The translations under genes were made by a program, and so were the position numbers. The notes under the pieces were generated by a model. The model was not told where the DNA came from. It saw nothing but the letters and a program-made list of their open reading frames with translations, and did not search any database. A DNA stretch of 59,601 bases, taken from contig ADNK01001597.1 in the NCBI GenBank assembly GCA_000320545.1, positions 1-59,601 on the forward strand, given 5' to 3'. Every line of letters starts with the position of its first letter. Position 1 is the first letter of the stretch. This DNA comes from Bigelowiella natans CCMP2755. Taxonomy: Eukaryota > Protista > Cercozoa. Positions 5,767 to 47,770 of the stretch are shown in pieces.

Positions 5767-7886
5767 GGGAGTGGGTCGCTTTGCTTCTCCACGCAGTCCT
5801 CCCTACTTCTCGGCAGCAGAGCTTTCGCAAGAACTGGGGAAGGAGCTGGCTAAAGAACTTGAAAACGCACCTAAAGAGTCAGCAACACTACAACATTCCC
5901 TCCCCGAATCTCTTTCCTCACATCTCCTTCGATACCCTCTTCCTCCTCCCTTCTCCTCTTTCTGGTCTCTGCCTTCATCATACAGGCTCGAGCGGCTTTC
6001 GAAGGAGCTGGAGAAGGGTATTGAAGAGCTGAGCGAAACAATGCGGGAGGACAGTTTGACTTCTCTTGAGTCTCTTATCGAGCCAGAGGCCAATGACATC
6101 AGAACAACCACATCCACGTACGTATATCATATGTAGAGGAAGAAGAAGAAGAAAAATAAAAAGAAGAAGAAAAGTAGTATTGTGGGTAGAGGAGGGGAAG
6201 GAAGGGGAGAGATATATATCTATAGGGGTATGAGATTGAAAGACATTTATCGTTTATCAAAGTATAGGAGGCAATGGGGTATTCTACATTAGTGTATGAT
6301 GTTGCTGCTCTCCTACTCCAACACTGCTCCTCCTCCTCAGAAACACATATCGGAGCCTATTCTTCAAGCAAAACAACCGTGTTGAATCGAAGGTGTTGAT
6401 GGCATGCTAATCAACGTATATTTTTTTAAAGGGGGGGTGGGGGGTTAGCAAACTCACCATCCTTGTTTCAACAACGAAATGCTTGTTACGTTTCCTCAAA
6501 CCCACCTCTCACCCACTTCCTTGTTTGTCAAACTTGCGGGTCCCTCGTGAATAATTGGATACTAGATGTTGAAGGCTCTTAAGGAACTCTCAGTCGATGT
6601 AAGTTGAAGTCCAAAGATGATCTATTGCTTTTACATGCAGCGAATCCTCAGAGCAAATCCCACCCCCCGCCTACTCTTCTTCCCCCCCTTCTACTCCTCC
6701 CCTCTTCTACCAGGCGTACGGCAGTGGCCCTGATTCCGAGCTATTGAAGGAAATGGCCAGGGAGAGGGGGCTGAAGAACGTTTCATTCTATCCAGGGATT
6801 GATCATCTGGAGCTAAAAGGTCGGAGTAATAAGTAGCAGATGGTACCTATGCCTTCGCACGCCTTGTTCGCACTTCTCGTGCTACATTCCACGTTATATA
6901 TCGTGGTGTTCAATGATATTCTTTGGTCTTTTTCATGCTTGCTCCATCCCCCCCCCCTCTTCCCTTCTTATAGAGTACAAGACATTCGTGAACCCATCGA
7001 TTTCCGAGGTCCTCTGTACGACAACAGCGGAGGCTCTCGCCATGGGTAGGGGCGCTATTGACAGTAGTTGTAAATTTGTATCAGCGGGCGTTAGAGCGAA
7101 ATGAGGATAGCCAAGAGTTCACCATCCTCTTTCTCTACATTCTTTCCCCCCTCCCCTCCCTTGTTCTTTTAGGCAAGTTCGTAATCATTCCATCGCATGA
7201 ATCGAACACCTTCTTTCAGCAGTTTCCTAACTGCCTCGCCTATTCATCTCCGGCTGAGTTCAGGCAGAGAGTTGCCTTTGCTCAGACCCACGAACCGGTA
7301 TCATCATTGTTAGTGCTTTGAATGAGCGTGTAATACAATAGTAGTAGTAGTAGCACTAGACAACAACAACTGTATTTAATTGGAAAACTCTGAACGAAAT
7401 TATCTAAAGAGAAGAAAACAGGTTGGTTGCAACAACTCCTTGTTGTTCAATTACTTTTTCTATCGTCAGATTTTTGCAACAATTGTGTCATTACATCGCT
7501 CGATCTTTTGGCTTGTGATAGTTTTTCAATTCCTTTTTGTTGCTTTGACTCATTGGCAGACACCCTTGTCAGCTGATGTCGCACGGTTACTCACGTGGGA
7601 GGCGGCGACAGAGCGACTCATCGAATCAGCGAAGATAACCGAGAAAATGTCACAAGCACATTACTTTGATGATGTAGGGGCCAGATTCCACACGTGGTTG
7701 GGCAAAGGAAAGAAAGGCAATGTCATCAGAAGGTGCATTTGTTCATGCATGACACAACTGATGTTGCAATGGGCGATTCTCATCCATGTTGCACCCTAAA
7801 CTTTCAGGATGGCAGGCGCAGCACCACTGTTAGATCCTCGAGATGACCAAAGTCCTGAGGCATCTTCTTCATCACAAAGTCCGTAG
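2181..7886 (+). CDS. DGD: Digalactosyldiacylglycerol synthase (GT4 family), many exons, signal-peptide-like N-terminus
   Basis: Exons encode ITTASLPWKTGT|AVNPTLRAAYL, VTLMVPW, VAVLEEPEHLNW, FNHVVGIIHTNY, NVHGVR, YFIGK, YGSGPD, FVNPSISEVLCTTTAEALAMG|KFVIIPSHESNTFF and LTWEAATERL. Start MRLSSFAIRLVAVMLLCVVLMLSLE is inferred. Confidence 0.92.
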
Positions 7887-9716
7887 AGGCCATCATTTGT
7901 TGCGCATGCATGGCTAGATGGATTGCACTCAACGACAACGTTGCAATGAAAATGCGAAGTGACCTCGCACATCCCCACCCCTCGCCTGACCTAGCTGACG
8001 CAGTGATTCACACACGTCACAATGATGGCAATGCATTGCGATGGATGGTGGATCGACTTTGTGTCTGCTGCGCTTCAGAAATGCGAGCTGCGTGGTTGCA
8101 GCACTCACACTTCGTCCACGTTGTTCACAAGTGTGGATTGCTGAGTTGTGCGCGACGTGCTGTGATGATTGGCTGCGAGGCCTTCGCGTTCGCGAGGCGA
8201 GTGCGACAAAACGATTGCACTTCCAGTGTGCCAGTGTGGCAATGCGCACATGCTTGCTAGCTTGCCCTTGCAACCCACAGTTGCGTGCTCATTGCTTGAG
8301 CAGCTGATGCGTGTCGCGCTGGAACCTGCCAGCCTGCACCGCGTGGTTGCACACACTGGCACAGTGCCTTGCTCAGTTTGCACGGCCACGTTCCGGTGCA
8401 GTCTCCAGGCCAGATCTCACTCACCAAAGCAGTCTGGCAGCCCAGCAGCTGGCAGTGTGACCACCTCTCCAGTTCTTCTTGCAGTGCTGTGCACCCAGCT
8501 AGCCAGGCACAGGCCTGGAGGCCGCGAAGTGCGTGGTTGCAGCAGTCCAGCAGTTGCAGCGCCAGAGCAATGACGTGCGGGCGTTTGCCAGCTGTGCACG
8601 AAGCAACCAGTGCGCGAGGCGAGAACGCAGCCGAAGTGTTGCACGCGACTTCGGTGGCACTGACAGAAGCCACTTTGTGCCACAAAGGAAGCACGGTGTT
8701 TGTGCGCCTGCACGTCTGGACGTGCACAAGTTGTGTTTCAGGTGTTTTCGCCTGACCAACACGAAAACACTCGCGTGCGTGCCGAAAAGTCCGTGTCGTC
8801 GTCACCACCACTCCAGCACTGCTGAACTTGTTCGAGGGCGGACTGCCCTCCCTTTGTTCCACCCACCGGCCAGAGCTGTTCGCGTGCACTCTGCACCTGC
8901 CATGATCCCCAGTTCAGACAGTTCTTGTCGTGTTGGTTTCACACCAGTCTGGCAGTGGGTCCTCGTCGTTCTCAGTTCGAACACTGCCAAACTGAACACT
9001 GAACGATGACGTTGAAGTGAGCGCTGGCAGACTGGCTAGCTGGTGCAAAGCGACGTTTGAGAGGCGGCAAACGTTGCGGTGCGCAAAAAGGCACTGCCAC
9101 ACTGCGCCAGTGCGTTTCGCACTTTGCAAGTGTCGTGCAACACTTCCTGGCTTTGGAGGTGCAGTCGATCAACAAAGTTTCTTCGTTTCAACTTTCAACT
9201 TCCTTTCCTTGCAACTCCGCTTCACCGATGGCTCTGACTCCTTCAGCTAGCTGGCCAATCAGAACCAACAAAGCGGTGTTGAGTGAGCTCGCTTGCCAGC
9301 TCTGGAACTTGTTGCTGGCTGGCTGGACGCAAGCACCTCCTTCCTCCCACCCCTTGCCAGCTTGGCTGTGCTGCTTGTGGGCGCTGCGTGAAACAAGCGC
9401 TTGCCTCCCGTGTGGTTTGCCAGTTTGTGGCGCGCAAGCCAGCAAGGTGGTGAGGCCGAACGTCACCTGCGACAAGGCGGGTGTTGTCGCACCCCCAAAG
9501 TGGATGTGAACGTCGCAGAGGCAAAATCCCTGGTCTTGCACGGAAAGGCCTGCCAAGAGCTGGCATCCCCTGCGCACGCAGACTTGTGTCAGTGCCAAGC
9601 AAGTTCAGCACTCAACGTTCAGTGCTTCCTGGCAGCCACACACGCCAACCTCTCGTCACACTTGTTTTCACACTCTGGCACTGGTGAGTCCTCGTTGTTT
9701 TCAGCTCGAGGCACTG

Positions 9717-10008
9717 TGTTGCGCGCAGCGTGCTTGGAATGCAAGCAAGCTGCGGTCAGATGAACAGTTGAGAAGTTGAATTCTGGTTGCATTGATGTGC
9801 ACACTTGGCAAACAGTCATCAGTTGTGTTTGATTGATTGACTGACAGGCCTTCTTGGTGAAGGTCTGTCCGATGGCTCTCACACCCAGGCCTTCCAACAG
9901 GCCTGGCGTTCTGTTGGCGCGATGCGATGCCGTTTGGGGTTGCGACAACCCCCATTCATTGTCGCAGGTGACTTTGGCGCAATTGCCCAAATCACCGTGC
10001 GCGCCACA
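9717..10008 (-). repeat. 3' LTR of decayed element
   Basis: TG...CA ends; direct repeat of 11650-11941 with 24 mismatches by eye. Confidence 0.92.
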
Positions 10009-11649
10009 CCTCCCCCAAGTCACCAAGCATCTTCTCAGTGTCTCCGCTTCGCTTGGGGGGCGGTGCTCTTTCCAGCGTCTCCGGAACTTGACGAGCCACC
10101 AGGTGATGCTTCCTTCTCTGATGTTGTTTCTTTTTCCATCGAGCTGCTGCATTCCCTCGTGTTTGGCAGGCCCGTGCCTGTGCCATCCTTCGGTGTCGAC
10201 GTCGCCGAGGACACGTCGCTTGCGAGCTCTGGTGCAAGCAGGCAAACTTTTCATGTCCCCCCCCCATCCCCAGTTCCTTTCCATTTTTTCACTTCCGCCA
10301 TTGCCATTGTTGTTCGTCTTGCCTCCCCCAAGTGAAAAAGTGCATTCGAGGCGTCCCCTGATCTGCCGCACTGTCATGCTGGAGCAATTTGCAACGTCTT
10401 GCGGGAGGCAGAAGGGACCTTTCTTGATGCAATTGACATTGCACTTTGCAATCGACACGCACAACGTTGACCTTGTGCCAAGTGTTGTTGTTGGTTGTGT
10501 TGAGTCAGGTCTTCGGAGGTTTTCAAACGTCCGGCCCGCTTTTGACTCTTGCAAGCAGCTGAGGTTTTTGCACGAATCCTGTTTGTTCATTGCACATTTT
10601 TCTTTGACTTTTGTTTGCGATTTGAGACTTTTGTGGACGTGCTTTTTGCTTCCTGCTGTTGTGTCCGTTTTCTTTGTCCCGGGTGCTGGTCCCGGATGCT
10701 GACGTTTTGCTGGCAGCTGCTGCGCTGGTCCCAGGTGCTGATCAGCTGGTTTTGGCTGCTGATGCCAACGTTGATGAGTGCGGTCCTTTGCAGGTGCTGC
10801 TTTTTCGTTCATGCGCTCGTGAGTTTTCTGCTTTGACTCTTCCCTTGTGTTTTGTTCGCATGTCATGGCCTGCTTTGATTTCCCCCGTGAAACTTTTGCA
10901 AATCCCCCCCGTGGGGGTGCAAATTTCACTTTCATTGGTGAGAACTGCGTCTTTTTGTGCACCCCACGTTGCGTCGTTTCTGGTTTCTCAATTGGGAACT
11001 GCACGTTCCTGTGAACCTGTTGCTGTTTCGCCGTGCCCGGGATGGCTCCCCGCGAAGCTCCCCGGTTTCTGTTCCTGCGGAACAATTCCGCCCATTCCTC
11101 GGGCAAGTCTGACTCCATCGCTTCCTGCTTGACTTTTGTCAATGCCCCCTTCGCTTTGGTGCTTGCACACGATTCCTGTTTTCACTTTCGTGCACGTCGT
11201 CGGTCGTGGTCGTGATCCCCTGAGTGCCACGACCAGTTTCTTTCCTTGTTCGACCATTTCATCGTCCTCCGCCTCGCAAAATTCCTGAACTGCGTCCGTT
11301 GCTAGTTCCGCAGGCTTTTTCCTGGGTGCTGGTCCCGAAGCTGCTGGAGGGGTTGTTGTTCTGCCCTTCCCCTGCTGCATCGTGTTTCTTTCTTCCGGGT
11401 GCTGGTCCCGGTTTTCCCGGAGGGGTTGTTTTCCTGCCCTCCCATTGCTGCTTTGCAGTCTTCATTCCGGGTGATGGTCCCGGTTTTCCCGGAGGGGTTG
11501 CCATCCTCCCCTCCACCAACCGCTTGTCGCCTTTGCCATCCTTCTGTGCCTGCACGTTGCCGAGCACGTCGCTCTCTGAGATTTCTCGTCCATTTTCCTG
11601 ATGAGACATGTTTCTGGTGCTGATTTTCCCGTGAGTGGAAGCCAAATGT

Positions 11650-11941
11650 CGTTGCGCGCAGCGTGCTTGGAATGAAAGTGAGCTGCGGTCAGGTGAACAG
11701 TTGAGAAGTTGAATTCCAGTTGCATTGATGTGTGCACTTGGTGAACAGTCATCAGTCATGTTTGATTGATTGACTGACAGGCCTTCTCAGTGAAGGTCTG
11801 TCCGATGGCTCTTGCACCCAGGCCTTCCAACAGGCCTGGCGTTCTGTTGGCGCGACACGATGCCGTTTGGGGTTGCGACAACCCCCATTCATTGTCGCAG
11901 GTGACTTTGGCGTGATTGCCTAGGTCACCGTGCGCGCCACA
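11650..11941 (-). repeat. 5' LTR of decayed element
   Basis: Direct repeat of 9717-10008, adjacent to the PBS. Confidence 0.92.
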
Positions 11942-12435
11942 ACTGTGAGCTTTTCACGTTGCCATGTCGCTCCATGACTTTTTGAGGTTTTTCCGCCATG
12001 AGCTTTTCACTTCGCCACGTCGCTCGTGCTGGAGTGTGACACACGGGTTCCCTGAGAGCACCCCACCGTGACACACTGTCGCCTTGCTCCACGTCCGGGC
12101 AATGCGATGTCCGGGATGTGCACGGTGCTGCTTTTTCGGGCCACACGTCGGTGCCTTTTCGTGGTCATGCGGAGGTCTGCTGCACTGGCCATGCGTGTGT
12201 CATCGGGTTGCGTGTGCAGCTCGATGTGACTTTGAGCCACACACCTGAACCGACAGTGCGACACACCTCCCTGCTGTTGCCAGTCTGCGACAATGTGCAC
12301 GGGGCAAACACCGACAAATTCCGTCTTGGTTTCGCATTTTTTCAACATCCTTTTGGCTGAGAAGCCAAAGAGCTTCCCGCCCAACGCCAGTTGCACCTTT
12401 GATTCCCACCTGGTTTTGTCCTTGGAATGGCAAAT

Positions 12436-12771
12436 ATGATCATGTCGCAACTGAAAATCCCCTGTGGAACTACCACTCTGTCCTCGGAGAATGGCATGAA
12501 CGGGGAAAGGGCTCTATCTGGCCGCAAGCGTGGACACTCCACCAACGATGAAAGCGCAGCTAGAAACAATGGCGACGGAAATGCTCGCGAGGAGGGCGGC
12601 CCAGACATGCCGACGGGTGGCTTGCGTTGGAGAGTGACCTACTCAGAGGGAGCTGTCATTCGCAGCAAGCCTGTGAACAAGGACGAATCCATCATAGGAG
12701 TGGCAAAAGAAGGAGAGGTTGTCTCCTCACCCTGCATTCTTTCTTTGCCTTGCCTTTGTCATCGTTTCCTG

Positions 12772-16900: not shown

Positions 16901-18004
16901 TGCAGGTTGACAAGCACACAGTGCGGAGCGCAGCTAGGAAACTCTCGGCGCGGAATAAAAGGGGGAGAAGAGACGAAGCACAGCCGCAACAACGGCTGGC
17001 TTCAGAAAGCGGTGTAATCGAGCAAAACAAACATACCAAACCAGGGGTAGACGCATTAAAAATACGTAAAGAGCGGATGGAAGAACTCCTCGGGCAATGG
17101 AGGAGTCATGGCATACGAAGGAGGCGTGTACATGAAAATCTAAGGGGCTCTGGGGCGTTAGACCCGCAAGCCGCACAATGCGAGGGACTGGATTATGATG
17201 AAGGTGGCGAGGGCAGGGGCACAGCGCAAACGGAAAATAAGGAGGGGTCGGCAGGGGGGGGGGGGCGATAGAGAGCCCAACTCGTTGGTAGTTGACGACA
17301 TGGAAACCAACCAAGACAACGAAGAGCAACGCCGGCGGATAATCGACTTTATATGCCAAGCCTCTGCGCATTATGGAGATATCAAGCATCCAGACGTTCT
17401 CCGAGACACATGTCACAAGTTCAAGATTACTGAAGCTTTAGGGAAAGAGCTCATCTCTTTGGTCATGAGCGGGGAAATAGCTCCCTTTGGCCGCAGGCAT
17501 GGGCGCTCCACTAAAGATGAAAGCGCAGCTGGAAGTAATGGCGACGAAAATGCTCGCGAGGGGGGGGGGGGGGGGCGCAGGGCCGCGGAGGGAAAGGAGG
17601 GACAGGGAAAGGGGGGGCGGGAGAAGGAACGGAGGACGGCGGTGAAAAGGAGGAGGGCCGAAAACGAGGAGGAGGTATGGGGGGAGGGGGAGAGCAGGGC
17701 AATAACGAAGAGTAGGAAAATAGAAAATGAAAAGCCCTCTAGTAGTAGTAGTAGTAGTGGTGGTGGTGGCGGTGTGTCTCCCAGTCCTCCTGCTCCTCCA
17801 GTTCTTGCGAGATTGATGGATCAGATTGGAAGGATAGAAAATCCGAAGGCCCAGTTTCTCCTTGAAATATTTACGGAGATAAGCAGTAAGGAATACGACT
17901 GGTTGGACGATTTGGACGATTTGGACGATAATCATTGGCCTGAATTGGATCCTTTCCTCAAAATGATACAGTTATACAGAAAATCGCGCGATATGAAAAA
18001 ATGA
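12436..18004 (+). CDS. Large multi-domain protein: SH3b-like N-terminus, C2H2-like zinc fingers, RNI-like LRRs, two degenerate bromodomain-like segments
   Basis: WRVTYSEGAVIRSKP..GDWVK..GW (SH3b-like); CLNCDRVF...HIRTDIH; LESLSLDQNLL/LRELSIQRNSF/LSILHIHENHV (LRR); IKRGGYTSYREVLSDVERTFDGYKLY and YGEAIRRPVAL...FAETARSIFINGLTF (bromo-like). The ~3.1-kb exon joins the 17195-18004 frame across a G-run at ~17254-17265. Confidence 0.65.
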
Positions 18005-21494: not shown

Positions 21495-23430
21495 GGTGCT
21501 AGTCGTCTGGGGAGATCCATTACTGTTTTCCGCCAGTCCTGTACAAATAACATTTGGCGTTGAGTGTAATTGTCAGATCGACGAAAATCGGAGACAGTGA
21601 CGAGGTTGTCCCGACCTGCGCGGAGACCGAAGATGGCCGCTCTCGAACAACTGCTGCTGCGTCCACCAGAAGAATCAAAAAGGAAAAATACTAGAGCAAC
21701 GCATGCGACCATCTTCCTCGCGCTGAACGTGTACATGGTGAATTTGGACACGCCATGGATAGGAGAGGGCAGGTCCATGATCGTTGATTCGTCCATGCAG
21801 AAGCTCCTTATTGGAGAAAGCCGCTGGTTAGTCTTGAGTAATCTTGTTTTTGAAGTATGTAGCCCCCTTCATTCCTTGTTGCTCCCTCCATGCTTTTCAC
21901 GAGCAGCGTTTCGAGTCATCATCTGGGGGCGCTCCACAGATGCTAATCGGCACCACTTCCCAGGACACGGAACGGTAAATCGAGGAAGAATTCCAAGGGA
22001 CAAACATGGGATTTATTTGCTGCGACAACAAATTTGTGCCATTTTTCATGTTGCGTTTCGCATGCCGTTGCGCACAAGAAAACCTGTTCTCCTAGAACTT
22101 TGAAGCACCTCGCTCCGATGAGCCCAAGTTCATCTCTGGAATCAATCACTGCATTCATCCATTCATTCATTCATTGGACTCACTTCTGATGCTCTCACCC
22201 GCGTCTTTGAAACTGCTTCATCACTCACTCACTCGACCGCGCGTCTGATGGTCCTTTCGGCTGCGCCGTTTGGAAGCACTTTGTTCGCTCGATCGTTGAC
22301 GATCGACGTTGCTCGTCCGTCTCGATCTGGCTTGTTTTGCACCTCCAAACACACCCTGCCCACCCTCCCATCCAAAATCCATCCAAAATCCATTCACCAG
22401 CGGCCGAAGTGTAGGCTCACGTGTTGACCTCCTTTGATGTTCCCCTCCACGCGATGTAGCTGTCACACAACTAGACAACTCCAGAACTCGTGGTCAGCAA
22501 GTTTGCCCCATCTCGCTCATCGCCGCTTTCGCCTGTGTGCCTGCCTTGTTTTTTGCTGGAGTTTCATGGTTGTGCCATCGTCAAGGTGCTTTCGATGGTT
22601 TTTCCGCTGGTCACCTCACTCAATTGATCCAGCTCACTTTCTGCTCCATCGGACTAGCGGAGGGCGGTGGGGCGCGGCCATTCGCCCTGACTCCTGCTGG
22701 CCTGGCGCCGCCCGCCAGCTTGGCAAGAACACGTGCAGCCAACAACACAATGTGTCCATGGCTTTGTGAGAGCTGAGCAATGGATCGTGATTGGAATGAG
22801 TCACCTGCGACCCACACCACGCCATGGCACGATCACGCTGACGGATTTTGGTTCGACAAATCTTGAAACGCGCTTGCGCAGCTTGTCTCAGCATGCTAGC
22901 ATGGACTAGTATGGTTGTCTAACAGTGTCTAGTTGCCATGATGTGCATTAGTGCAGCGCAACCTAGCTACCTAGCAACGTGCGCATCTCATGACAGCGCA
23001 AGCAGTGCGTGCTGCGTGACAATGGACATTGGATGGGCATGATTGCTGTTTGTGAGCGCTACTAGGGCGACACATCAAGTTCATCGGATGGCGCGTGCCA
23101 CGACCGCCTTTGCACATGTAACATGCATCTATAAACCGATGTTTGTTTCTCTGGTCTGATGTTCATGCAAAATTTCGTGCACGTGATATAGATCACACCT
23201 ACTTTGTGAGCGGGTATACGGGGCTAAAAATGTGCACACAAAGACGTGTCGCAACTCGCTGCGGCATAATCATAGGGAGTGAAAGAACACATGTAATCAT
23301 CAAACTCTGTATCAGTTTTACTTTTATTATGATGACTAATGGGTGGGCCACATGCTCATCAAGAAATTAGAATCTCAAGTGGAAATACGTGGTCGTATGA
23401 AATGAATGGACTCAGAGACGCTTTTTAGAA

Positions 23431-33795: not shown

Positions 33796-35435
33796 GTAGG
33801 GCCATGGAAAAAGTTTGATAAACCGGAAATACGGAACATATTTCATGGGATCGCGAAGGTAACCCGATGCTGTTTGTGGCTCTTCCTCTCTTTCAACCAC
33901 TTCCCATGTACAATGCATGCTTGCGAATGTGCTGTATTTCACTGTTAGTGCCGCTGTTCATTTCAACATACGTGTGATTGCTTGCAGGGGGCTGAAAGCA
34001 TGCACGAGGAACTGTAGTGACAACTCTAGCTTTTTGTGCCAATGATGGTTGCCACCAATTCCAGAGCGAATGGACTGCAAAATTGCCAGACTGCATGTTG
34101 ATCCAACACGTGTTTTTCGGCCAGCTGGCAGCGATGACTTGTTCTAGAGTTCGAGTCTTCTTTCAACATCGCAAGATTGCTGCCTGCGTGCACTTGTGCA
34201 TGCCAACATGGCACGCTGCCGCGCAATGGCACATGGTTGGTGGCGAGCACAGCAGCCGCATTTGCAATGCAAGCGGGCAGTAGACCGTCCAATTTGTGAA
34301 ACTAGACGCAAACACGATGCATGAAGAGCATTTGAGGGTTGACACACACGTGAGAACCAATCTGTCTTTTCTAGTTGTCGAGGCAAGCAATTTCTCATCT
34401 GCAAAGCTAGAAAGTGACAACTGCTGTCTGGCTGTCACCACAGTGCGTGCACATGATGGCGGCAAACACAGCGCCCACCACGAAATTCACTGCCATGCGC
34501 ACTTGAATCATTGGAGCGAGAGAGGCTTTGCAGTGAACGAACAACGATGGTGAAGTGTTTTCACCAGTGCAGGGCTGACGACTCCAGCACGCCCTCCTCA
34601 ACCCACAAACACCACCACGAAAACTGAGGCAAACTGCCGGCCACGATCACTCAGACAAATGATCTGTCGAGACCGTTGAGATTGATCAGTGTTGCAACGC
34701 TCACGGAAGACAGAGAAACGAGTGAAGTGGTTTTGAGGGTCATCGGAGGTTCTGAATTCCTGTGACTGCACTCCTGTCTGCAACGTTCCACCTGGTTGAC
34801 TGGTTGATTGAATTCACGTCCTCGAGTGAACGAAGCAATTTCAATGGTGCATTATGATCATGGGATGTGCTAACCTGTCCGTGCCCTCCTCAAGAAAGAA
34901 AGAAAGAAAGAAGTGCTTTGGAGTGGATCTCAACAATGAAACTGGATCTTGAATGAATGATGAATTGGAGGTCGCCGAGTCGCCAATGAATACCTCCCCA
35001 AAAGGGAACCAAATCGTAGGAAACGACAGACCATTTTCATGTCGCAGGATTGATTGATTGATTGATTCATTCATTCATTGATTCACGTTGGAAAAACACT
35101 GTGTGTTTTCATGTGCCTCGGAACCGCAAAGAAGAGGGTACTCAGCCTGTTGTCATGTTTGTAGGAACACTGGCAAATTCACGCGTGCGACAACACAAAT
35201 CAAGCACCATCTTGCATTTCATCCTCAAAACCCGTCGGCAGGCCATCGGGTCGGAAGCATCGCCACGCGCAAGTGCGTTCGAATGTGTTTTAGGTCGATT
35301 TTATCAGATGTTTCCACGATGGCGAATTTTTTTTGGCAACAATCTTGAAATGCTTCTCTGTCTTGGTCTCGGTTGATGCCAGCAGCGGCAGAACAACGAA
35401 GGTACTACATTTCACACCTACACCTCGAAGGCTAC

Positions 35436-36816
35436 ATGCGTGTTGCTCAACCCATTCCAGTGCTTTCTTTTCTCGTTGCTCTTTCAGCGTTCTCCTTTGC
35501 CCAGGCAAAAACTAGGGTGGAAATTCAAGCAGCACCGAAGGTTTTCAATGAGAAGCGATTAGCTGCTGTTCCTTTTGGGGCTCATTTATGATTTTGGCGA
35601 CTTGATCAGCTCAAGACTTACAATGTTGACACCAACGCCATCACCGTCTCGGGGATCTCTGCTGGGGCCTTTTTCGCTGTTCAGATGCAAGTGGCATTTA
35701 GTAGTACCATCAACGGTGCTGCAATTGTCGCAGGAGGTAGTTAGCACTAAAGCAAAGATGCAAACTACCACCTCTGAGGTGTTGCGTTCGGCCCCTTTCT
35801 AGGACCGTACCATTGTGCTGAAGGACAGATGACTAGTGCACTTACCAGCTGCATGTCTACTGGGCTTATCGATGTGAACGGAATTCTGAGATACATTGAG
35901 GCTCAGGAGAAGGTAGAATCTCATCCACATCTGAGATAGACGGCTCCTTCCTCATGCGTTGAAAGCAATTACGTCACTTGTACCACAACCTACAAGGCTC
36001 AGGCAATCGACGACACTGCAAATCTATCCAGCCACAAAGTGTTGATGTGGAGCGGAACTAACGATCATACCGTCAGCCAGAGTGTAATGAAGAGCCTTGC
36101 ACACATGTACGTCCTGGACCAGAAAATGATGATAATCCTTTGACCTTGTAGCTCTTCTTGTCCTCCTTGTGTGCTCTCCAAGCTAAGAATTCAATCGAAA
36201 CTTTCAACTTAGGTATCAAACTGGTCTTGGCGTGAATGACACCTCTATCTACTTCAATTACTCCTCCGGACATGCGTGGATCACGGACTACTACGGCAGC
36301 AGCTGCAGCACCACGGCGTCGCCGTACATCAACAACTGTGATTTCGACCTAGCTGGGGAGTCCTTCAAGATGTTCTATGGTCCAGACCTCAAAGATCGCG
36401 CCGCAAAGATGGTCGGCGCCAACCTCCTCGCCTTCGATCAGGTAGAGTTTGGAGGTGGGGCAATGGCCAGTCTGGGCAACACGGGCTACATTTACGTGCC
36501 CGGTGCATGCGCAGACGGTTCCATCGCATGCGCGCTACACGTCAATTTCCACGGGTGCAATCAGGGGGGCTACAAGCTAGGACAGACGTACGTACAGCAC
36601 AGTGGGTTGAATCGCTGGGCGGAGACCAACAACATCATCGTGGTGTATCCGCAGGCTGCATCCGCGCTCCTCAAAGAGAACCCCAATGGGTGCTTCGATT
36701 GGTGGGGTTACAACGATGCCAAGTACGCTACCCAGGATGGCACACAGATGAAAGTGATGAAGAAGATCATTGATCGTGTTTCGGGCGCAAATTCATTTGG
36801 TGCATCCTTCGTCTGA
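35436..36816 (+). CDS. Secreted poly(3-hydroxybutyrate) depolymerase-like alpha/beta hydrolase
   Basis: Signal peptide; TVSGISAGAFFAVQM (lipase box), AG|GPYHCA, WSGTNDHTV, SGHAWIT, GYIYVP, LHVNFHGC, NNIIVVYPQ, NPNGCFDWWGY. Confidence 0.85.
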
Positions 36817-37533: not shown

Positions 37534-37859
37534 TGTTGCGCGTAAGGTGTTCACAGGCCGAGGCGCTACGTGCACAAGTAGGCAGGGGGGGGGAAAGGCA
37601 CGTTTGCTTCCTTTTGAAGAGTTGTGTTTATTTTTATTAAAGATTATATTTTTATTAAATCGTGCACTGCGTAATCATTCGCGAAGCTTTCGCGAATGCC
37701 GCCGCACGTGGGGCAGCACACTTCCGGTGTGCTGCCATGAGTCCCGCCGGAACCCACGTGCCTATGCTGTATTAATATCTACGTTATCTATATTCTATAT
37801 CCGCGACAACCCCTTTGTTGTCGCACGTGACTTGTGCCCGCGTAGTGGTACGCGCTACA
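37534..37859 (-). repeat. 3' LTR
   Basis: Direct repeat of 43123-43448; no mismatch seen. Confidence 0.96.
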
Positions 37860-37910
37860 CCTCCCCCAAGTCACGTTGCTCCTTCCTTCCTTCCTTATTC
37901 CCTTAGACCT

Positions 37911-40900
37911 TCATCGCTTTCGGAACTTCACCAACCACCAGGTAATAGATTCCTCTCTAACCTTATCTCCTTTGTCGCTTACCCAGAACTCACCTTCGTC
38001 CTTAGGTTCGTGTCCATACCAGCCCTCTGCATCAAGGTCCCCCAGGACCTTATACCAGTGCTCAAAGGGTAAGTCGGGAACAGCTAGGTAGAGTAGCTGA
38101 TATTTTCCGTCCTTTATTTTCATAGCTACCCTCTCCATATTTCGTAATCCAGGGTAGCCTAGATAGACAATCTTCATGCGCCAATCGTCGTTCACCCTGA
38201 CCTTATTGTTTCCATATTCCACATCGAACTTAGGTCGGGGTCCTAAACAAGGCATTGCTCGCTCCCACACAGTAGGGTTTACTTTAACATCCTCTAGGAG
38301 CTTCTCACCGATATCATAATTCTTTAGGTGACTGATGTGGCGCAAGGTGACCCTGTTCCCATCATAGATGTAGTACTGCTTCCTCCCCTTCCTCTCGGTA
38401 ACCTTTGCAACGCCACCCCAGAAGGGGTCTTGTTTATTTCTCGATCTCAGATTTACCTTGGCCCTAACATACTGTCCTTCCTTTAGAACTCGGCCATCGT
38501 ACGGGACCTTCTCGTCTTCGCTCTCGGTATCGTCGTCGTTGTCGTCGCCTTCTTCCCTCTCCTTATCCTTGATACCTCCCCCAGACGTGAAGGTGTCGTT
38601 TACTAACCCTTGTATCTTGTCTGGTGTGGTGCTATTTATCCTGCTTAGGTTGGCCAAGGTGCGGTGGAGTCGCTCTACCTTGGAGTTGGACTGGGCATAG
38701 TATACAGGTGAGGCATCAATATTAGGGTGTGGTAGCTGTAGAAGAGAGGTCTCATTATCCACATGTAACTTCTTTGGTATCTTGTTTATGCTAACTTCAT
38801 CAGGGATAGCCTGGAGCTCAGACTCCCAGGTACGGTAGCAGTTAGTAAGCCTCTGCTTATATAAGCCTTTGTTCTTCTTAGCAACGTTGACCTTGATAAT
38901 CTTTTTAACCCAGCACTTTCCAGTGGCCACATCAACGAAGGTAAGGTAGTGATAGCCATCGTACTTATAAACATCAATTTGCACGATATCTAAGAAGTTC
39001 CTTGCTTTGATTTTCTTAGATGCACGGCTCTTGCTGGACTCCTTGGTGGCGACGCCTGCCGCCTTCAAGCTGGAGCACCTGCAGCCACGCAGGTATGTCC
39101 TTATCTCTTTTAGCTTGTAGGGCCAGTAGTAATGGTAGAGTAGAGCAGTGATATGGTTTTCTCCTACGTGTGCAGGTCCATGGGCGGTAAAGAGAAGGGC
39201 TCCCCTGGTCCGCCGTGGCACGTAGGTACGCCTAACATTATTAGTGTATACATATATCCTATCACTAAGTACCTCATGCTTGTGTTTGTATTTATCCAGG
39301 TGTTCTTGAAGGTGCTGGAGCTCCTCTGGCTCAGGCAGGAAGTCGCCGTCCTCGAAGGTAATCGCGTTAACCATAGGGGTGACCTGGGTAGGGACTTTCT
39401 TTTCGAACAGCCTGCTGAAATAGTCAGCAAGCTGCTTGTCTCCTGGTGCGTAGACCACTGTCCTCTTGTCCCTAAACTCTTCCGTGTCCGCCCTCATAGC
39501 TGCATACTCATCGTTAGGCGCTTCGAGCTTGCGGTCGATGCCTAGGAGGGGCTTGTGGTCAGTCATTAAGGTGAAGCTGGGCACCGACAGCAGGTAGTAT
39601 CTTAGTTTCCTCTGCGCCTCAGTCATGGCTTTATACTCTCCTTTTGTAGGGCTGTACTTGGCCTCAGCTGCTGTGCAGGCCCTGCCCCACACCCGTATGA
39701 TCTGCTGGTCTTGGGTAAGTACAGCAGCCATACCTAGCTTAGACCAGTCTGTCCATAGGGTAGCTGGTCTAGTAGTGTCTAGCTTAGCATTCAATAGGGT
39801 GTTGCTGCATAACTTTATTAGGTTATCGAAGTGGGCATCAAGGCCAGCCTTGGCCCACACCTTAGCGAAGCTGAGGCCTACAGAGTTCTCCTTCCGGTAA
39901 GCAGTAGTAAAAGCAGCTGCAGTCCTAGCGTAGGTAGGGGAGAACCTACGTAGTATCCAAGCTGCAGTCTGCAAGAATGACTTTAACTCCTTTGCATTCT
40001 TAGGTTTAGGGGCTTGCTGTAGTGCTGCTACTTTCTCGGGGTTTGGGGTGATGCGGCCTTGCTCCAGGTAATATCCACACCACTTGATTCTTGTAGCTAG
40101 GAATGTACACTTCTGCAGTCTAATAGTAAAACCGAAGTGTGCAAACCTAATAAATATATTTTCCAGGAGGAAGATCTGAGCGACGACTGTGTTGGTACAT
40201 ATTATGTCATCATCCACATACACAAACACAAACACCCACAACACAGACGCCATCCCATCATGTGTGTATGCCCTGTAGTTCTGACTACTGAACGCATCCC
40301 CTGATATGCTTAGGCCGTAAGGGAATACGACGAAGTGCCACTTCCTGTGCCTGCTGGAGAACGCGGTAATGGGGCGGGAGGTTTTGTGGATGGGTGTCTG
40401 CATGTATGATTCATTTTTATCTAGGGAAGAGTAGTATTTGTATCCTATGACGTGTTCAATAACGTCATCTATCCTTGGTGTAGGTGTCTGGATCCTCTTT
40501 ATTACTCGGTTGTGGCGGATGAAGTTGTGCGCCAGGCGGAAGAAAGGGTAAGTAGGTTTCTTAGCTAGCACATGTCTCACGTTCCATGGTGAGTTGCTTG
40601 GCTCTATCTTCCCTTCCTTTGCCCATTCATTGATCTGCCACTCTATCTTTTCCCAGTCCGCTTCCGGTCGCCTATGTTCTGGGTCATTGATGATGCACTC
40701 TTCGTATCCCTTCTTTAGCTCGATCTTTACTGGGGTAAGCTTGCTGGAGGGCTTCGTCGTCGGCTTGGTGATGTCAGAGTACTTCTCGTTTAATATTTTA
40801 TTAATGTACTTTTTGCCTTTGTCGACATCCCAATCATCAGCTGGGGGGGTCTTGTCCAGTAGCTCCGTTATCTGTCGGATGGTCTTGCCGGGGTTCTTCT

Positions 40901-41746
40901 TCCGTAGCTCGGTAGGTGTAGGTAGCTTGTTGTCCGCTAGGTCCATAAACTCTAACGCATTAACGCTTGACTCAGAGGTCCACTCGTCAAGCCGTATCAT
41001 GTTCTGGCTGATGGTCCTGCCTGACTTCTTTGGCAACTTAGCAAAGTATATCTTGTGATTGTAGAATGATATGATCCCCCCTAATTTTTCTAGGGCATCC
41101 TGTCCGAGGAGTAGTTCCATGGATAAAGTCATGGCTACTCGGGTCTTGATTTGGGTCTCCGCGTCGCTGCCAGGTATCTGTAGCTTTAGCATTAGCTCAC
41201 CGACGGTCTTCATGGAAGAGCTTCCGTCTGCTTGAGCATATTTACGTTCTTTCTTAGTCACTTGATCCAATAGTCCTAACCTTCTTACTGTGCTTAGGCT
41301 TATGAAGGACTTCGGCATGCTGCCACTATCCCAAAGGGCAGGTAGTTTCTTGTAGTCTCCGTAGCTGTCTTTAACTTTAACCTTGGTCATAGCAACTTTG
41401 ATAGTCCTGTTAGCGTCTTCGTCATTAATGTTGCATACTCCTAAGTTCTTTATGTCGTCTAGGGTCATGGGCTTGTCTTGGTCCTGCGTTGCTGGTACTG
41501 CTGTCTTCGTCGGCGCCTGCTTAAGGTGATCTAATATTCCGTTTATCTGCTGCTGTATAGCATTGATACTGTTCTGCTTTTTGTTCTTATATTTATTGTT
41601 CTTCCCGTTGTTGCTGCCTTGCCATTTGCTGTTGTTATATCCTTGTCCTCTGCCTTTCTTTCTCTTTAACTTCTCGTAGTGTTCGTTGAGCTGCCTGATC
41701 GTCATCCTGGGTCGTCCTTCTTTCCTGTCTCTGCAGTCTTTAGCGG
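37911..41746 (-). CDS. pol: Pol: aspartic protease, RT, RNase H, integrase and a C-terminal adenine-methyltransferase-like domain
   Basis: ALWDSGS (PR); SPWN, FPYGL, YVDD (RT); WTDWS...TDHKPL...ADYFSR (RNase H); H..H..C.C and IDV/VDN/VER (IN). Confidence 0.93.
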
Positions 41747-43083
41747 GTTTTGTGGATGGGTGTCTGCATGTATGATTCATTTTTATCTAGGGAAGAGTAG
41801 TATTTGTATCCTATGACGTGTTCAATAACGTCATCTATCCTTGGTGTAGGTGTCTGGATCCTCTTTAACTTCTCGTAGTGTTCGTTGAGCTGCCTGATCG
41901 TCATCCTGGGTCGTCCTTCTTTCCTGTCTCTGCAGTCTTTAGCGGTGTGTTTCCCTTTACGTGAGCAGTATCCGCAACGTCGGTTACCTTCCCTGTCCTT
42001 GTACCAGTCTCGCTGCGGCTTAATAGCGTTAATGTTTCCTATGCCAGGTACCTTAGGGCTGGTAAACTTGCGGTCCTGCTCCTGCTCGCGTAGGGATATA
42101 GCCTGCACTGCTGCCTCCATCGTGGTGTAGCCTTTCTCCGTAACGTAAGTGGATTCCTTTATCTTTAACTTGAACTCTTCAAACCTTGCCTGATCATCAC
42201 CTGTGTTGTAATTAAAATCATGTAGTTCGTCGATCATATCCTGGAAGCGCGTGGCAAAGTCTCTAACAGGTTCTCTCTCATGCTGCATCATTGCTCTGTA
42301 TTTTCTAATAGCCTGGGGTAGGGAGTTAGCATCCTGTTCATTTACAAAAGCCTTCATTATCGCCTCAACGTCTCGTAGCCCACTAACTGTAGTGTGTATT
42401 TTCTCTAGCTGCCTGATCCGGGTCCTGCCTGTCTCGTAAAGGTCCATGGCTTGCTTTATTATAGCTAGCCATTTGAGCTTGTCGTTTTCGGTGGGGTTAG
42501 GGGTAAAGTCGCAGAGTATACTCCTAGCGTTCTTCCACCACCTCCTTGCCTCACCTCTTTTCCCGTTGTATTTCGTTATCATAACCGGTGCTGTTTTAAC
42601 AGACATGAACTGGGTGTTCCGCTGTACCGGCTGCTGCTGCTTGACGGTGCTCTGGGTCGTCCCCCGCGAGGCGCCCAGACCCCCGTCGTTCCTAAACAAA
42701 GCTGCCCACTCTGGAGGTAAGTCTGCTTCGTAATCCATGATGTCCTGCATGATAGCTGCCCAAACATCATGTGTCTGATACTTGTATTCTATCGATACTT
42801 TCAGTTTGGCGTAGTTGCTCGCCCTGGGTCGCAAGGCTCGTAATGCCATTACGACCTTCTTGCTTTCGGCGGCCACGTCCTCGTCGTCCGCCTCGTAGAA
42901 GTTCTCCAGTGCCTCTGCTGCTGCATCTGCTTTCTTAATCCCGGGTGCTGGTCCCGGCGGTGCCTGTGGAGGTGTTCCTCCTCCTTCCTTAGCGTCCGTA
43001 TCGCCCTTCCTTTCCTGTTTCTGCTCGTGCCCTTGCACGGCCTGCGAGCCAAAGTCCTGCTGTTCTTCTAGCTGCTGTGACAT
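41740..43083 (-). CDS. gag: Gag with CCHC-type knuckle, ending in an ectopic RT-derived segment
   Basis: 447-aa ORF; CGYCSRKGKHTAKDC; the last ~40 aa duplicate an RT segment. Confidence 0.88.
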   Translation of the reverse strand: MSQQLEEQQDFGSQAVQGHEQKQERKGDTDAKEGGGTPPQAPPGPAPGIKKADAAAEALENFYEADDEDVAAESKKVVMALRALRPRASNYAKLKVSIEYKYQTHDVWAAIMQDIMDYEADLPPEWAALFRNDGGLGASRGTTQSTVKQQQPVQRNTQFMSVKTAPVMITKYNGKRGEARRWWKNARSILCDFTPNPTENDKLKWLAIIKQAMDLYETGRTRIRQLEKIHTTVSGLRDVEAIMKAFVNEQDANSLPQAIRKYRAMMQHEREPVRDFATRFQDMIDELHDFNYNTGDDQARFEEFKLKIKESTYVTEKGYTTMEAAVQAISLREQEQDRKFTSPKVPGIGNINAIKPQRDWYKDREGNRRCGYCSRKGKHTAKDCRDRKEGRPRMTIRQLNEHYEKLKRIQTPTPRIDDVIEHVIGYKYYSSLDKNESYMQTPIHKTR

Positions 43084-43098
43084 TGTTAGTCAAATCGT

Positions 43099-43117
43099 TT
43101 CCCGTGTGTGGAAGCCA
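43099..43117 (-). promoter_or_regulatory. Primer-binding site TGGCTTCCACACACGGGAA
   Basis: TGG-initiated, 5 nt inside the 5' LTR, and conserved with the same spacing in the decayed element. Confidence 0.75.
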
Positions 43118-43122
43118 AAGGT

Positions 43123-43448
43123 TGTTGCGCGTAAGGTGTTCACAGGCCGAGGCGCTACGTGCACAAGTAGGCAGGGGGGGGGAAAGGCACGTTTGCTTCC
43201 TTTTGAAGAGTTGTGTTTATTTTTATTAAAGATTATATTTTTATTAAATCGTGCACTGCGTAATCATTCGCGAAGCTTTCGCGAATGCCGCCGCACGTGG
43301 GGCAGCACACTTCCGGTGTGCTGCCATGAGTCCCGCCGGAACCCACGTGCCTATGCTGTATTAATATCTACGTTATCTATATTCTATATCCGCGACAACC
43401 CCTTTGTTGTCGCACGTGACTTGTGCCCGCGTAGTGGTACGCGCTACA
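43123..43448 (-). repeat. 5' LTR
   Basis: Direct repeat of 37534-37859. Confidence 0.96.
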
Positions 43449-45254
43449 ATTCGACATTCCAACGTGACTGGCTAGCTAGGTGTGCTGTTGTTAGCGCCAG
43501 CTGCTGATGCGTTCAACAAGCTAGACAGGCATGCTTTCATTGAGCTGGTTAGCTGGCTAGCTGGCTAGCTCTGGAACACGGGGCTGGGTGCGCCTCAACG
43601 CCTCAACTCTGTGTGAAACCATGTGCACAAAACAGCCAGCTGTGTCTAGTCAAGTGAAGCAGGTGCACGGACACGGGGAGAGCATCGAGCGCACACGCTC
43701 CGAATGAATGAATGAACGAAGCGGTTCAGGAGCGGTTGGAAGGAATCAATCTAGCAATGAATGAATGAAAAAAGCATGCAATGCATTCACGTGTCAACAA
43801 AAGCGGTTGAAAGCTTCCTCGGGAGCGAGGACGGCGAACTCGAAAACTGGCAGAACTACTAGACTAAAGCAGCATTCACCGTTGTCGCATGATCGAATTG
43901 CAGGTCTAAAATGAATTAATGAATTTGAGACATCCGTACTCGCATGACGAACAAATGCAAACATGAAGTCCAGGGAAATCATCGATGATTTCTTTCATTA
44001 TCAGCATTTCGCGAAATTTTTTGCAGTTTTTCGAAGATGCAATTCGTCCAAGGATCCATCGATTATCTTAATTTTACTGGATACGTTGCCTGATGATCAT
44101 GATATTCCGTATCCAAATAAAGGCCACAATTTACTCTCTTACGACATCATATCCGCTGTTTCTGGAAGGTAATCCTAGGTAATCCTGGTAATCACCGGAT
44201 TCTTTCATGTACGAAAAATCAAATCCAAGATAACGGGTTTTCTGTCAAATTTTAACATGCAAAACATCTAAAATGTATAATCATTAATCTTTGCATCGTG
44301 ATGTGGCAGTGAGATGGTTATACCGAGTATGTTTGTCATCATCATGGAAGTTTATCCTATATTGTTAGGCCTGCCTCTGCTACACTGTCCAGAGACCCCT
44401 GTCCAGAGAGCATATAAAAGCAAAACTACCTGCCTACTTTACGTTAAGGGAGAGCATGTAAGCTGGCTGGCTGAAATAATGTTAAAGAAAATCTCCTGAT
44501 GATTGTTTTTAATACTGTGACTTGCCTGATTTGCTCTGCTCTCAATCCTCGCTGTAGTCCGTATCTTCAAATCTATCAATCACAAGTATATGCACGTTCA
44601 TTTGCCCTTTGAGTATTTAAATCCTCCTCTATTGTAAAGGCCCGGGCTGCATTCTGAAGCGATAGATGCTGGAATTCAACAGATGGAAACCGCACGCAAG
44701 GGCACTGGAAATAGTCGTCCAGAAGCCTCATACCCAGTACCGAATTGTGGTGACTTGGTAAATTTCTAGAAAGTTATTTCCCGGAACGAATTCGCTCTCT
44801 TACTTCCTCCTAGAGTCATTTCCTCCCTACAAAAACTAATCCAAAAAAAACTTATGTAATTGGCCATAGTTGGCGAAATTTCAGGAATCATCATCGTCAC
44901 TGTGCTTCCTCATTGCTCTATACTTCTCTCCCTCGATAACGCCTCCATACTTCCTTGCTAGCATCATATATCTCACGGTAAACTCACTGCCTGTGAATAG
45001 TCTGATCTTTTGTATTCGGCATTCTATCTGTAACATACTTCCTCGTTTCTTCTATTTAATCCTCGAGCAGATTGCCTCCACCGGCTACCACATCACGAAG
45101 CATGTGTATCCGTGCAAGCAATTTTCCTATTTCGAGCTCGGTAGCGGCATAATATCGACTCCTAGCTACTTGTCATCATCTTCATGATTGTTTCTAATTT
45201 CTGCGCTGCCACGCCATCATGCCTCCCCCGCCCCCCCCCCTCTCTCTCTCTCTG

Positions 45255-47176: not shown

Positions 47177-47770
47177 TTAAATTTTTTCAATGGTCATCCT
47201 GATGTAGCTGTGCAATGCAGCGGCTACAGCGCTAATGTTACATCTGTTGGTTTCTGCCACCACGTGCTTCATGCAATTGAAAGCGTCCTCATGCGACCGA
47301 TGTTGCCGCGCACTGCGCACAGCAGTTCTGGAGTCCTTTTCAGCCTTTGTCAGCCGGTTCGTGTCGTCGTTGCGATTCATGATCGCGCGCATTTGATTGC
47401 GCAATCTGATTTGTTCTCGACTGTGTGTTGGACATTGCAGGAGTCGATCCATGTCCTTCAGGATGCCACATGCATCGCACGTGGCATCTTTCTCTGTGCA
47501 TTGTCCACGTGAGAACATGAATTTTCCAAGATTGCCGACACCACAGATGGCGCGCATCCATGATGTGGCAACACTTGGAAGTTTTAGTTTGATGCCGGTG
47601 ATCGAAGATGACGGGAGGAATCCAAGATTCTTGAGATGCACAGCGCGCAATGAATCATTGGACCATTCCTCTTCGAATTCGTTGAGAGCACAGGATTTCA
47701 TCACCTTGTGATGTTTTTTCAGTTCCATTTTCAGCGCCTCTGTTGTCGCCAAAACGGTGGGCAATTCGTA
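47177..47770 (-). mobile_element. Decayed 5'-truncated non-LTR (LINE-like) retrotransposon, C-terminal zinc-knuckle region
   Basis: CDACGILKDMDRLLQCPTHSR resembles the LINE ORF2 CxxC..H..CP.Y motif. Its 3' end recurs at ~30985-31050 and ~47065-47105. TpA-depleted. Confidence 0.6.

Follow-up and report, generated by a model that had tools for sequence, protein, structure and literature searches.

Reciprocal CA/TG differences between the LTRs of an old Bigelowiella natans retrotransposon point to TpA-directed mutation after insertion

An old, non-autonomous LTR retrotransposon of Bigelowiella natans has lost almost all of its TA dinucleotides, and its two LTRs differ mainly by doublets that read CA in one copy and TG in the other. 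We regard it as highly probable that these sites were originally TA, that they changed after insertion and to about 97% saturation, and that the process is the TpA hypermutation measured in B. natans. That process is already reported in this species in a 2026 preprint (Mettrop et al., bioRxiv 10.64898/2026.01.13.699255); the additions made here are the LTR-pair evidence, the saturation and a probable sparing of TAG. The analysis covered one 59,601-nt stretch of DNA, referred to as the window. The locus is B. natans nuclear DNA: one host exon groups with a protein of this species, and JGI Bigna1 models are 100% identical to the frame of the old element and to the Gag and Pol of a young relative in the same window.

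The old element occupies positions 9717-11941 (2225 nt) and reads on the minus strand. Its LTRs, 292 nt each, align without gaps (9717-10008 against 11650-11941), which together with the ACTG target-site duplication indicates a single insertion. The TG..CA LTRs, the duplication, a primer-binding-site-like stretch and a polypurine tract are those of a non-autonomous Ty3/gypsy element; the terminal base pair of the 5' LTR is altered at one end. No protease, reverse transcriptase (RT), RNase H or integrase core was found in it, and as the beginning of gag and the final 47 codons of pol are all that is left, the element is a non-autonomous derivative. Internally deleted Ty3/gypsy elements share its TG..CA LTRs, 4-nt duplication, primer-binding-site-like and polypurine tracts and gag and Pol-end remnants, and only the mutation pattern sets it apart from ordinary derivatives of this kind. 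No tRNA genes were found in the window. The end motif of a related LTR lies in opposite orientation at 9425-9499 (76% over 78 nt; a second end was not found), so the old element may have inserted into or beside another LTR. The features are collected in Table 1.

Table 1. Positions of the old element, its young relative and the TA-poor tracts in the window
Feature	Position	Strand	Remarks
3' LTR of old non-autonomous element	9717..10008	-	0 TA
5' LTR of old element	11650..11941	-	1 TA (11921, in CTAG); 24 differences from the other LTR
Target-site duplication ACTG, left copy, 4 nt	9713..9716		
Target-site duplication ACTG, right copy	11942..11945		
Putative primer-binding-site-like stretch, starts TGG, 5 nt off 5' LTR	11625..11644	-	Common to young element (41-nt block, 85% identical)
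Polypurine tract adjoining 3' LTR	10009..10016	-	Common to young element
gag N-terminal remnant, frame-shifted, without Tyr	10975..11357	-	
Pol C-terminus remnant	10075..10215	-	57% identical over 47 aa
520-codon stop-free frame, 0 Tyr	9619..11181	-	Part of 790-aa JGI gene model
Main TA-erased tract around old element	7885..12434		8 TA remain, all in CTAG; further decayed repeat pieces inside
Second TA-poor tract	21861..22896		8 TA, 3 in CTAG
Third TA-poor tract	34028..35402		13 TA, 4 in CTAG
Fourth TA-poor tract	47240..47768	-	1 TA; inside Cys-rich frame
Young Ty3/gypsy-type relative (control)	37534..43448	-	Identical 326-nt LTRs, ATTC duplication, RT and RNase H domains, TA o/e 1.1-1.2

The two LTRs show 24 mismatches within 292 nt, and 18 of these fall into nine adjacent CA/TG doublets, at left-LTR positions 9746, 9784, 9800, 9809, 9824, 9855, 9880, 9923 and 9980; both figures had been given in an earlier note on this DNA, and its nine contexts were recovered in the LTR alignment. 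Five doublets read CA/TG and four TG/CA, with CA and TG interleaved along the left LTR. When 24 positions were drawn at random in 100,000 shuffles, at most five adjacent pairs fell on CA or TG and never nine. The other six differences are a T/C at the first base, one C/A, three A/G and one CA against TA (9988/11921, within CTAG). Altogether 19 of the 24 differences are at TpA and five are not, three of these five being A/G, two of them adjacent at an AA. Nine reciprocal sites imply some 18-19 original TA in 292 nt, for comparison with 24 in the 326 nt of the young LTR. A model of ancestral TA with q=0.97 fits the LTR pair, in which no site is kept, one is half-changed and nine are reciprocal.

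The polarity of change was read against the young relative, only 61% identical to the old element in the gag block and alignable in the LTR only at the ends and the hairpin. Within that limit of distance, the use that had been made of this relative before stands: none of the 23 aligned TA of the young element is kept in the old one, where 7 are TG, 6 CA and 10 something else. These 10 of 23 sites that are neither CA nor TG, at 61% identity, count against the reading preferred below. By comparison, 21 of 38 CG of the young element are kept (P=3e-6 against TA, in alignable blocks). The same loss is seen in protein. Three dead copies were compared, the one in the window and two named sister models. 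In all of them the four ungapped Tyr columns of the young Gag hold Cys or His (12 of 12 cells), with both residues present in each column, and a fifth Tyr aligns to a gap; the sister models retain one Tyr in 435 aa and none in 307 aa. Sister copies of the element lie under the Bigna1 models 137245 and 141640. Two TA are left in the old element. The observed/expected ratio (o/e) of TA is 0.00-0.07 there against 1.1-1.2 in the young one, and in the old element that of CG is 0.75-0.80 and that of CA 1.5-1.8. Among 40 of 252 differences between the old element and reads of other copies, at least five internal sites are TA where the old element has CA or TG, four from one other-copy contig and one from another. 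None of the 40 falls at the nine doublets. They include seven sites with CG here and TG or CA elsewhere, and three of the reverse; in the main sister-protein block (P0162) 7 of the 56 substitutions need CG, 2 need TA, 17 fit either and 30 neither. A slower CpG decay also acts within the element family, and one of the doublets could be CG-derived, since CpG-type differences occur between family copies.

The four TA-poor tracts retain 39 TA, 16 in CTAG, 16 in half-sites (CTA or TAG) and 7 at open sites; relative to background, survival is 0.68 for CTAG, 0.11 for half-sites and 0.03 for open sites. The CTAG excess persists without the main tract (7/22, P=1e-4), and half-sites account for 16 of the 23 non-CTAG survivors (P=0.002). 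If TAG is taken to be hit about tenfold more slowly, a two-rate per-strand model gives 0.017 for open sites, and such slowness would account for the survival of CTAG. It is fairly probable that the target is 5'-TAH-3' on each strand, with TAG hit about tenfold more slowly. The 39 survivors are nevertheless few, doublets 9784 and 9855 require a hit at TAG, and at 9784 a CTAG was mutated in both LTRs. A trinucleotide control does not back TAG sparing: the TGG share in TA-poor DNA is 0.76-0.85, nearer to the simulation without sparing (0.82-0.87) than to that with 20-fold sparing (0.60-0.64), the ancestors being assumed in both. Another reading, which bears on the CTAG excess alone and is not additive with the other alternatives, is that CTAG is regenerated by C>T from CCAG or CTGG, or is shielded by a DNA modification or a binding protein. 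It is favoured by TGG being less scarce than strong sparing predicts and by the doubly mutated CTAG, and yet we hold it to be rather unlikely, because the half-sites survive at the intermediate level that a per-strand 3' rule predicts, and because neither CCAG (7.2 per kb, with 4.8 in the young element) nor CTGG (8.8 per kb, with 6.1) is depleted. The available text of 10.1101/2023.09.25.558915 gives no 3' rule for TadA, and that of 10.1101/2025.11.19.688996 does not mention CTAG.

As to the agent, our preferred reading, which we take to be reasonably likely, is that each TA becomes TG or CA on the chromosome after insertion, by repeated A-to-G events on either strand, for which a DNA adenine deaminase directed against silenced mobile DNA is probably responsible. 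A more specific form of it, held with marginally less assurance, would be an inosine route through an enzyme of the TadA/ADAT2 type, as the preprint proposes, with recruitment to heterochromatin after a lag. The element would insert and be silenced, and the enzyme would then be drawn to its chromatin; the adenine in TpA would be deaminated to inosine, which would be read as G at replication and give TG or CA according to the strand. No new stops would arise, but the element would lose every Tyr codon, its TATA and AATAAA words and the majority of its GTA splice donors, and it would be disabled by the missense load and the loss of signals. Transposable elements of B. natans carry a single H3K9me3+H3K27me3 state (10.1101/2025.03.17.643675, from the part of the paper available), and it is to this state that the candidate enzyme would be drawn.

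The same sequence evidence fits a lesion on the thymine side equally, since T>C before A is A>G after T. Here an enzyme would modify the T of TpA in silenced repeats (for example to 5-hydroxymethyl- or 5-formyluracil) and the modified base would pair with G. Enzymatic hydroxylation of thymine on repeats is described in other protists in the available text of PMC2655668 and PMC8565368, and among the matches listed on thymine hydroxylation none mentions Bigelowiella. The TadA/ADAT context has a 5' U at tRNA position 33. A 5' U preference is also given for ADAR in the available text of Mettrop et al. (bioRxiv 10.64898/2026.01.13.699255), which proposes the ADAT2 candidate Bn78255 as a DNA deaminase in B. 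natans. As a 5' T rule is typical of enzymes of the TadA/ADAT/ADAR type and such a candidate has been reported in the organism, we consider the thymine-side lesion improbable. A little less probable still is error-prone gap filling by a polymerase-eta-like enzyme during heterochromatin repair, with A:T>G:C at WA and TA foremost. WA hot spots of Pol eta are established in somatic hypermutation (PMC8749460, in the part available), and the A/G share of the non-TA LTR differences, with its adjacent pair at an AA, would agree with it; against it, the mutated DNA shows no depletion of AA (o/e 1.03-1.78 in the element and flanks), and the published de novo set is, in the text available, restricted to TpA (bioRxiv 10.64898/2026.01.13.699255).

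Ordinary deamination of 5-methylcytosine would yield identical doublets from nine sites that were once CG, if each decayed to TG in one of the LTRs and to CA in its partner. The reduced CG of the old element and the CG-type differences between family copies would suit it. However, this route requires many half-changed sites: the pair-state fit of the CG model expects 13.9 of 26, and one was observed (P ~7e-8), the LTRs having 16 CG in common, a single TG against CG (at the terminal base) and no CA against CG. It also leaves unexplained the absence of any non-CTAG TA in 4.5 kb, the gain in GC and the uniform replacement of Tyr by Cys or His. CpG decay was rejected as the main process on these LTR counts, and we judge it very improbable. 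The retention of CG between the LTRs had been claimed before and is borne out by them, and the view that TA and not CG was ancestral is supported by the pair-state test, the polarity against the intact relative, the composition and the published de novo TpA>CpA/TpG spectrum.

A change introduced into the RNA or cDNA ahead of integration ends up in both LTRs, and such changes show a single strand. The reciprocal LTR differences, the interleaving of CA and TG and the loss of TA beyond the element (1.8 kb to its left and 0.5 kb to its right) indicate instead that the changes were chromosomal, on either strand, and arose in many separate events. Pre-integration editing, whether ADAR-like on the element RNA, on cDNA or by RT error, is the least probable alternative, scarcely credible even though ADAR prefers A-to-G after U, because the LTRs differ reciprocally along their full length with CA and TG interleaved, because the loss reaches into both flanks, and because the ADAR hot spot UAG (PMC10661471, in the part available) is the very context spared here. 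A one-strand pattern of the ADAR/APOBEC kind, common to both LTRs and confined to the element, was not found. The earlier note had put the mutation after insertion and on the chromosome, had called it near-saturating, and had set aside RNA editing and RT error; all of this agrees with the reciprocal differences between LTRs that belong to a single insertion, with the matched target-site duplication and with the roughly 97% conversion given by the pair-state fit. Its description of the mutation as double-stranded holds in the sense that both strands were hit over time, but the data do not show double-stranded DNA to be the substrate. At 1.1e-5 per TpA per generation (calculated from the published rate), 97% erasure takes ~3e5 generations, far fewer than the ~2.5e7 generations of background age estimated for the LTR pair from its five non-TA differences, so that the figures are consistent with that rate.

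The young relative encodes a Pol with PF00078, PF17917 and PF17919 and gypsy-like homologues. It is inserted in TA-poor DNA and its edge is sharp, with no non-CTAG TA in the 500 nt leftward and 33 in the first 500 nt of the element, which indicates that it arrived after the surrounding DNA was erased and is itself still unhit. It may be less than 5,750 generations old if it mutates at the published rate, or else it may have yet to be targeted; a young multi-copy element untouched at its LTRs implies that targeting is delayed or selective. Three named models of this family depart from the window copy by isolated residues, 2 or 3 in each. One of these fits a single TA hit (40826), and they are too few to interpret. 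An exact 122-nt copy of the RT segment at 40380-40501 lies at 41746-41867, next to a duplication by which gag and pol are separated; the named models read through as a single Gag-Pol, and the duplication is either a template switch or an assembly error. A metagenome contig ~99% identical to the young pol (L001:1-1544; window 38272-40840, +) is without 13 stretches of 56-119 nt, all 13 with GT..AG ends on the strand antisense to pol. The longest frame of that strand is 113 aa, and TA lies inside 11 of the 13 donors; the antisense strand of the young element abounds in GGTA (38 v 13), GTAAG (10 v 2) and GTAG (53 v 8). The contig looks like a multiply spliced antisense RNA without a long antisense frame, and it could be a putative silencing transcript.

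The four TA-poor tracts cover 8076 of the 59601 nt (the segmentation counts every TA, CTAG included) and cannot all be assigned to a transposable element family. A Pfam search of TA-poor frames gave nothing at the cut-off. The Cys-rich frame at 47240-47768 has a Pfam zinc-finger hint below the cut-off and presumably resembles a piece of a non-LTR retrotransposon; the Tyr-free frame at 12007-12513 (-), with Cys/His motifs and a PD..L stretch and without a Pfam match, recalls what we take to be the endonuclease end of another. Two host genes that were measured have TA o/e of 0.63-0.70, with 14 Tyr in one exon, so that foreign DNA is affected and these genes are spared, as in the TpA hypermutation of B. 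natans. An exon of a poly(3-hydroxybutyrate) depolymerase-like gene (36187-36816), with many bacterial and protist homologues, is flanked by two TA-poor tracts and retains TA and Tyr. At the edge of a TA-poor tract, coding-like host sequence contains a 105-nt direct repeat, 83% identical (12495-12599 and 17464-17568). The left flank of the old element (7990-9716) shows a shortage of AT as well, with an o/e of 0.36 overall and of 0.14-0.18 in 8501-9500. Several of the non-TA LTR differences are A/G at AT; the shortage may reflect original composition or a second, weaker target. Runs of the four-mers ATTG, ATTC and ATGA in TA-poor DNA (35050-35085, 22155-22175 and 43700-43770) look like mutated TA-containing microsatellites.

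Given the genetic code, a change of TA to TG or CA never converts a sense codon into a stop, and it removes Tyr, TAA and TAG. This erasure of TAA and TAG explains the 790-aa JGI gene model that has no Tyr and spans both LTRs of the dead element, a model that is likely to be spurious. The old LTRs contain no AATAAA and no TATA, the young LTR three of each, and as the two kinds of LTR are not alignable their loss is only suggestive. In one raw RNA run, of which ~6% was read, 2 of 134 reads were at least 99% alike and the largest pile-ups consisted of short matches with loose ends that agree with the young family, so that the run gives no evidence on expression of the old element. For annotation, dead elements appear as long Tyr-free genes (three JGI models here, with 0-1 Tyr each), and LTR dating in the B. 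natans genome is inflated about fivefold (24/292 against 5/292).

Comparisons were extended beyond the window. Among other reports of TpA hypermutation, in a search that most subscription papers lie outside, only Mettrop et al. is relevant; the literature on TpA, TpG, retrotransposons and RIP was all fungal among the matches listed, and the available text of PMC12730881 contains neither TpA nor LTR. A motif scan of metagenome contigs gave 0 matches, and Pol scans gave 0 of 27 candidates in viral contigs and 1 of 443 in metagenomes, this one with few differences from the young copy and no clear TA bias. Tyr makes up 1.9-4.9% of 38 Pol homologues; none is Tyr-free, and that search therefore gave no sign of the process in other taxa.

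RIP of ascomycete fungi likewise makes dinucleotide-specific transitions on mobile DNA (PMC2621366, in the part available), on the chromosome and on both strands over rounds, and leaves dead elements. It differs in being C>T at CpA and in making TpA, whereas the B. natans process, a kind of reversed RIP, removes TpA and raises GC; fungal RIP was rejected here on the TA and CA composition of the old element. ADAR and APOBEC3 resemble the B. natans process in that a zinc-dependent deaminase with a 5' T/U preference is likely employed there too against mobile genomes, but they act on RNA or cDNA before integration and leave a one-strand pattern common to both LTRs. RIP is triggered by repeat pairing in the sexual cycle. 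In B. natans repeat pairing does not look like the trigger, since a single-copy viral region of the preprint is hit and the multi-copy young element is not.

In the text available, Mettrop et al. (bioRxiv 10.64898/2026.01.13.699255) describe integrated NCLDV and virophage DNA and ~230 de novo TpA>CpA/TpG changes in two integrated viral regions of B. natans, at ~6e-7 per site per generation, a rate raised ~1000-fold and active in some lines only. The viral regions are far from saturation (Rho 0.45), RT and DDE domains are enriched among TpA-depleted genes, and 124 TpA-depleted clusters are given. The old element shares with that report the species, the change of TpA to CpA or TpG on both strands, its local nature, the attack on foreign DNA and the sparing of host genes. 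It has A:T>G:C changes at TpA in the LTR differences, the aligned TA and the Tyr columns alike, with the direction taken from the 61%-identical relative. What differs is that its LTR pair dates the changes to after insertion, that saturation is nearly reached (about 97%) and that TAG is seemingly spared; the main text of the preprint, so far as available, has no mention of LTR, retrotransposon, TAG, trinucleotide or context, and its supplementary tables may hold contexts.

The TA-erasing process reported for viruses of B. natans is likely also to disable its transposons after insertion. Where the preprint speaks of 'potentially transposable elements', there is now direct evidence from one LTR retrotransposon, which also displays the final state to which the process leads. 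TAG sparing may serve as a fingerprint for picking the enzyme, and a natural DNA adenine deaminase, if real, would matter for base editing. More tentatively, and at somewhat less than even confidence, B. natans may possess a DNA adenine deaminase guided by chromatin, in effect an 'adenine RIP', whose motif is 5'-TAH-3' (TAG being spared, unlike in ADAR). It would finish its work on silenced mobile DNA of all classes, viruses being only one of them, and elements would die through the loss of Tyr codons and of TATA, poly(A) and splice-donor words while no stop is created.
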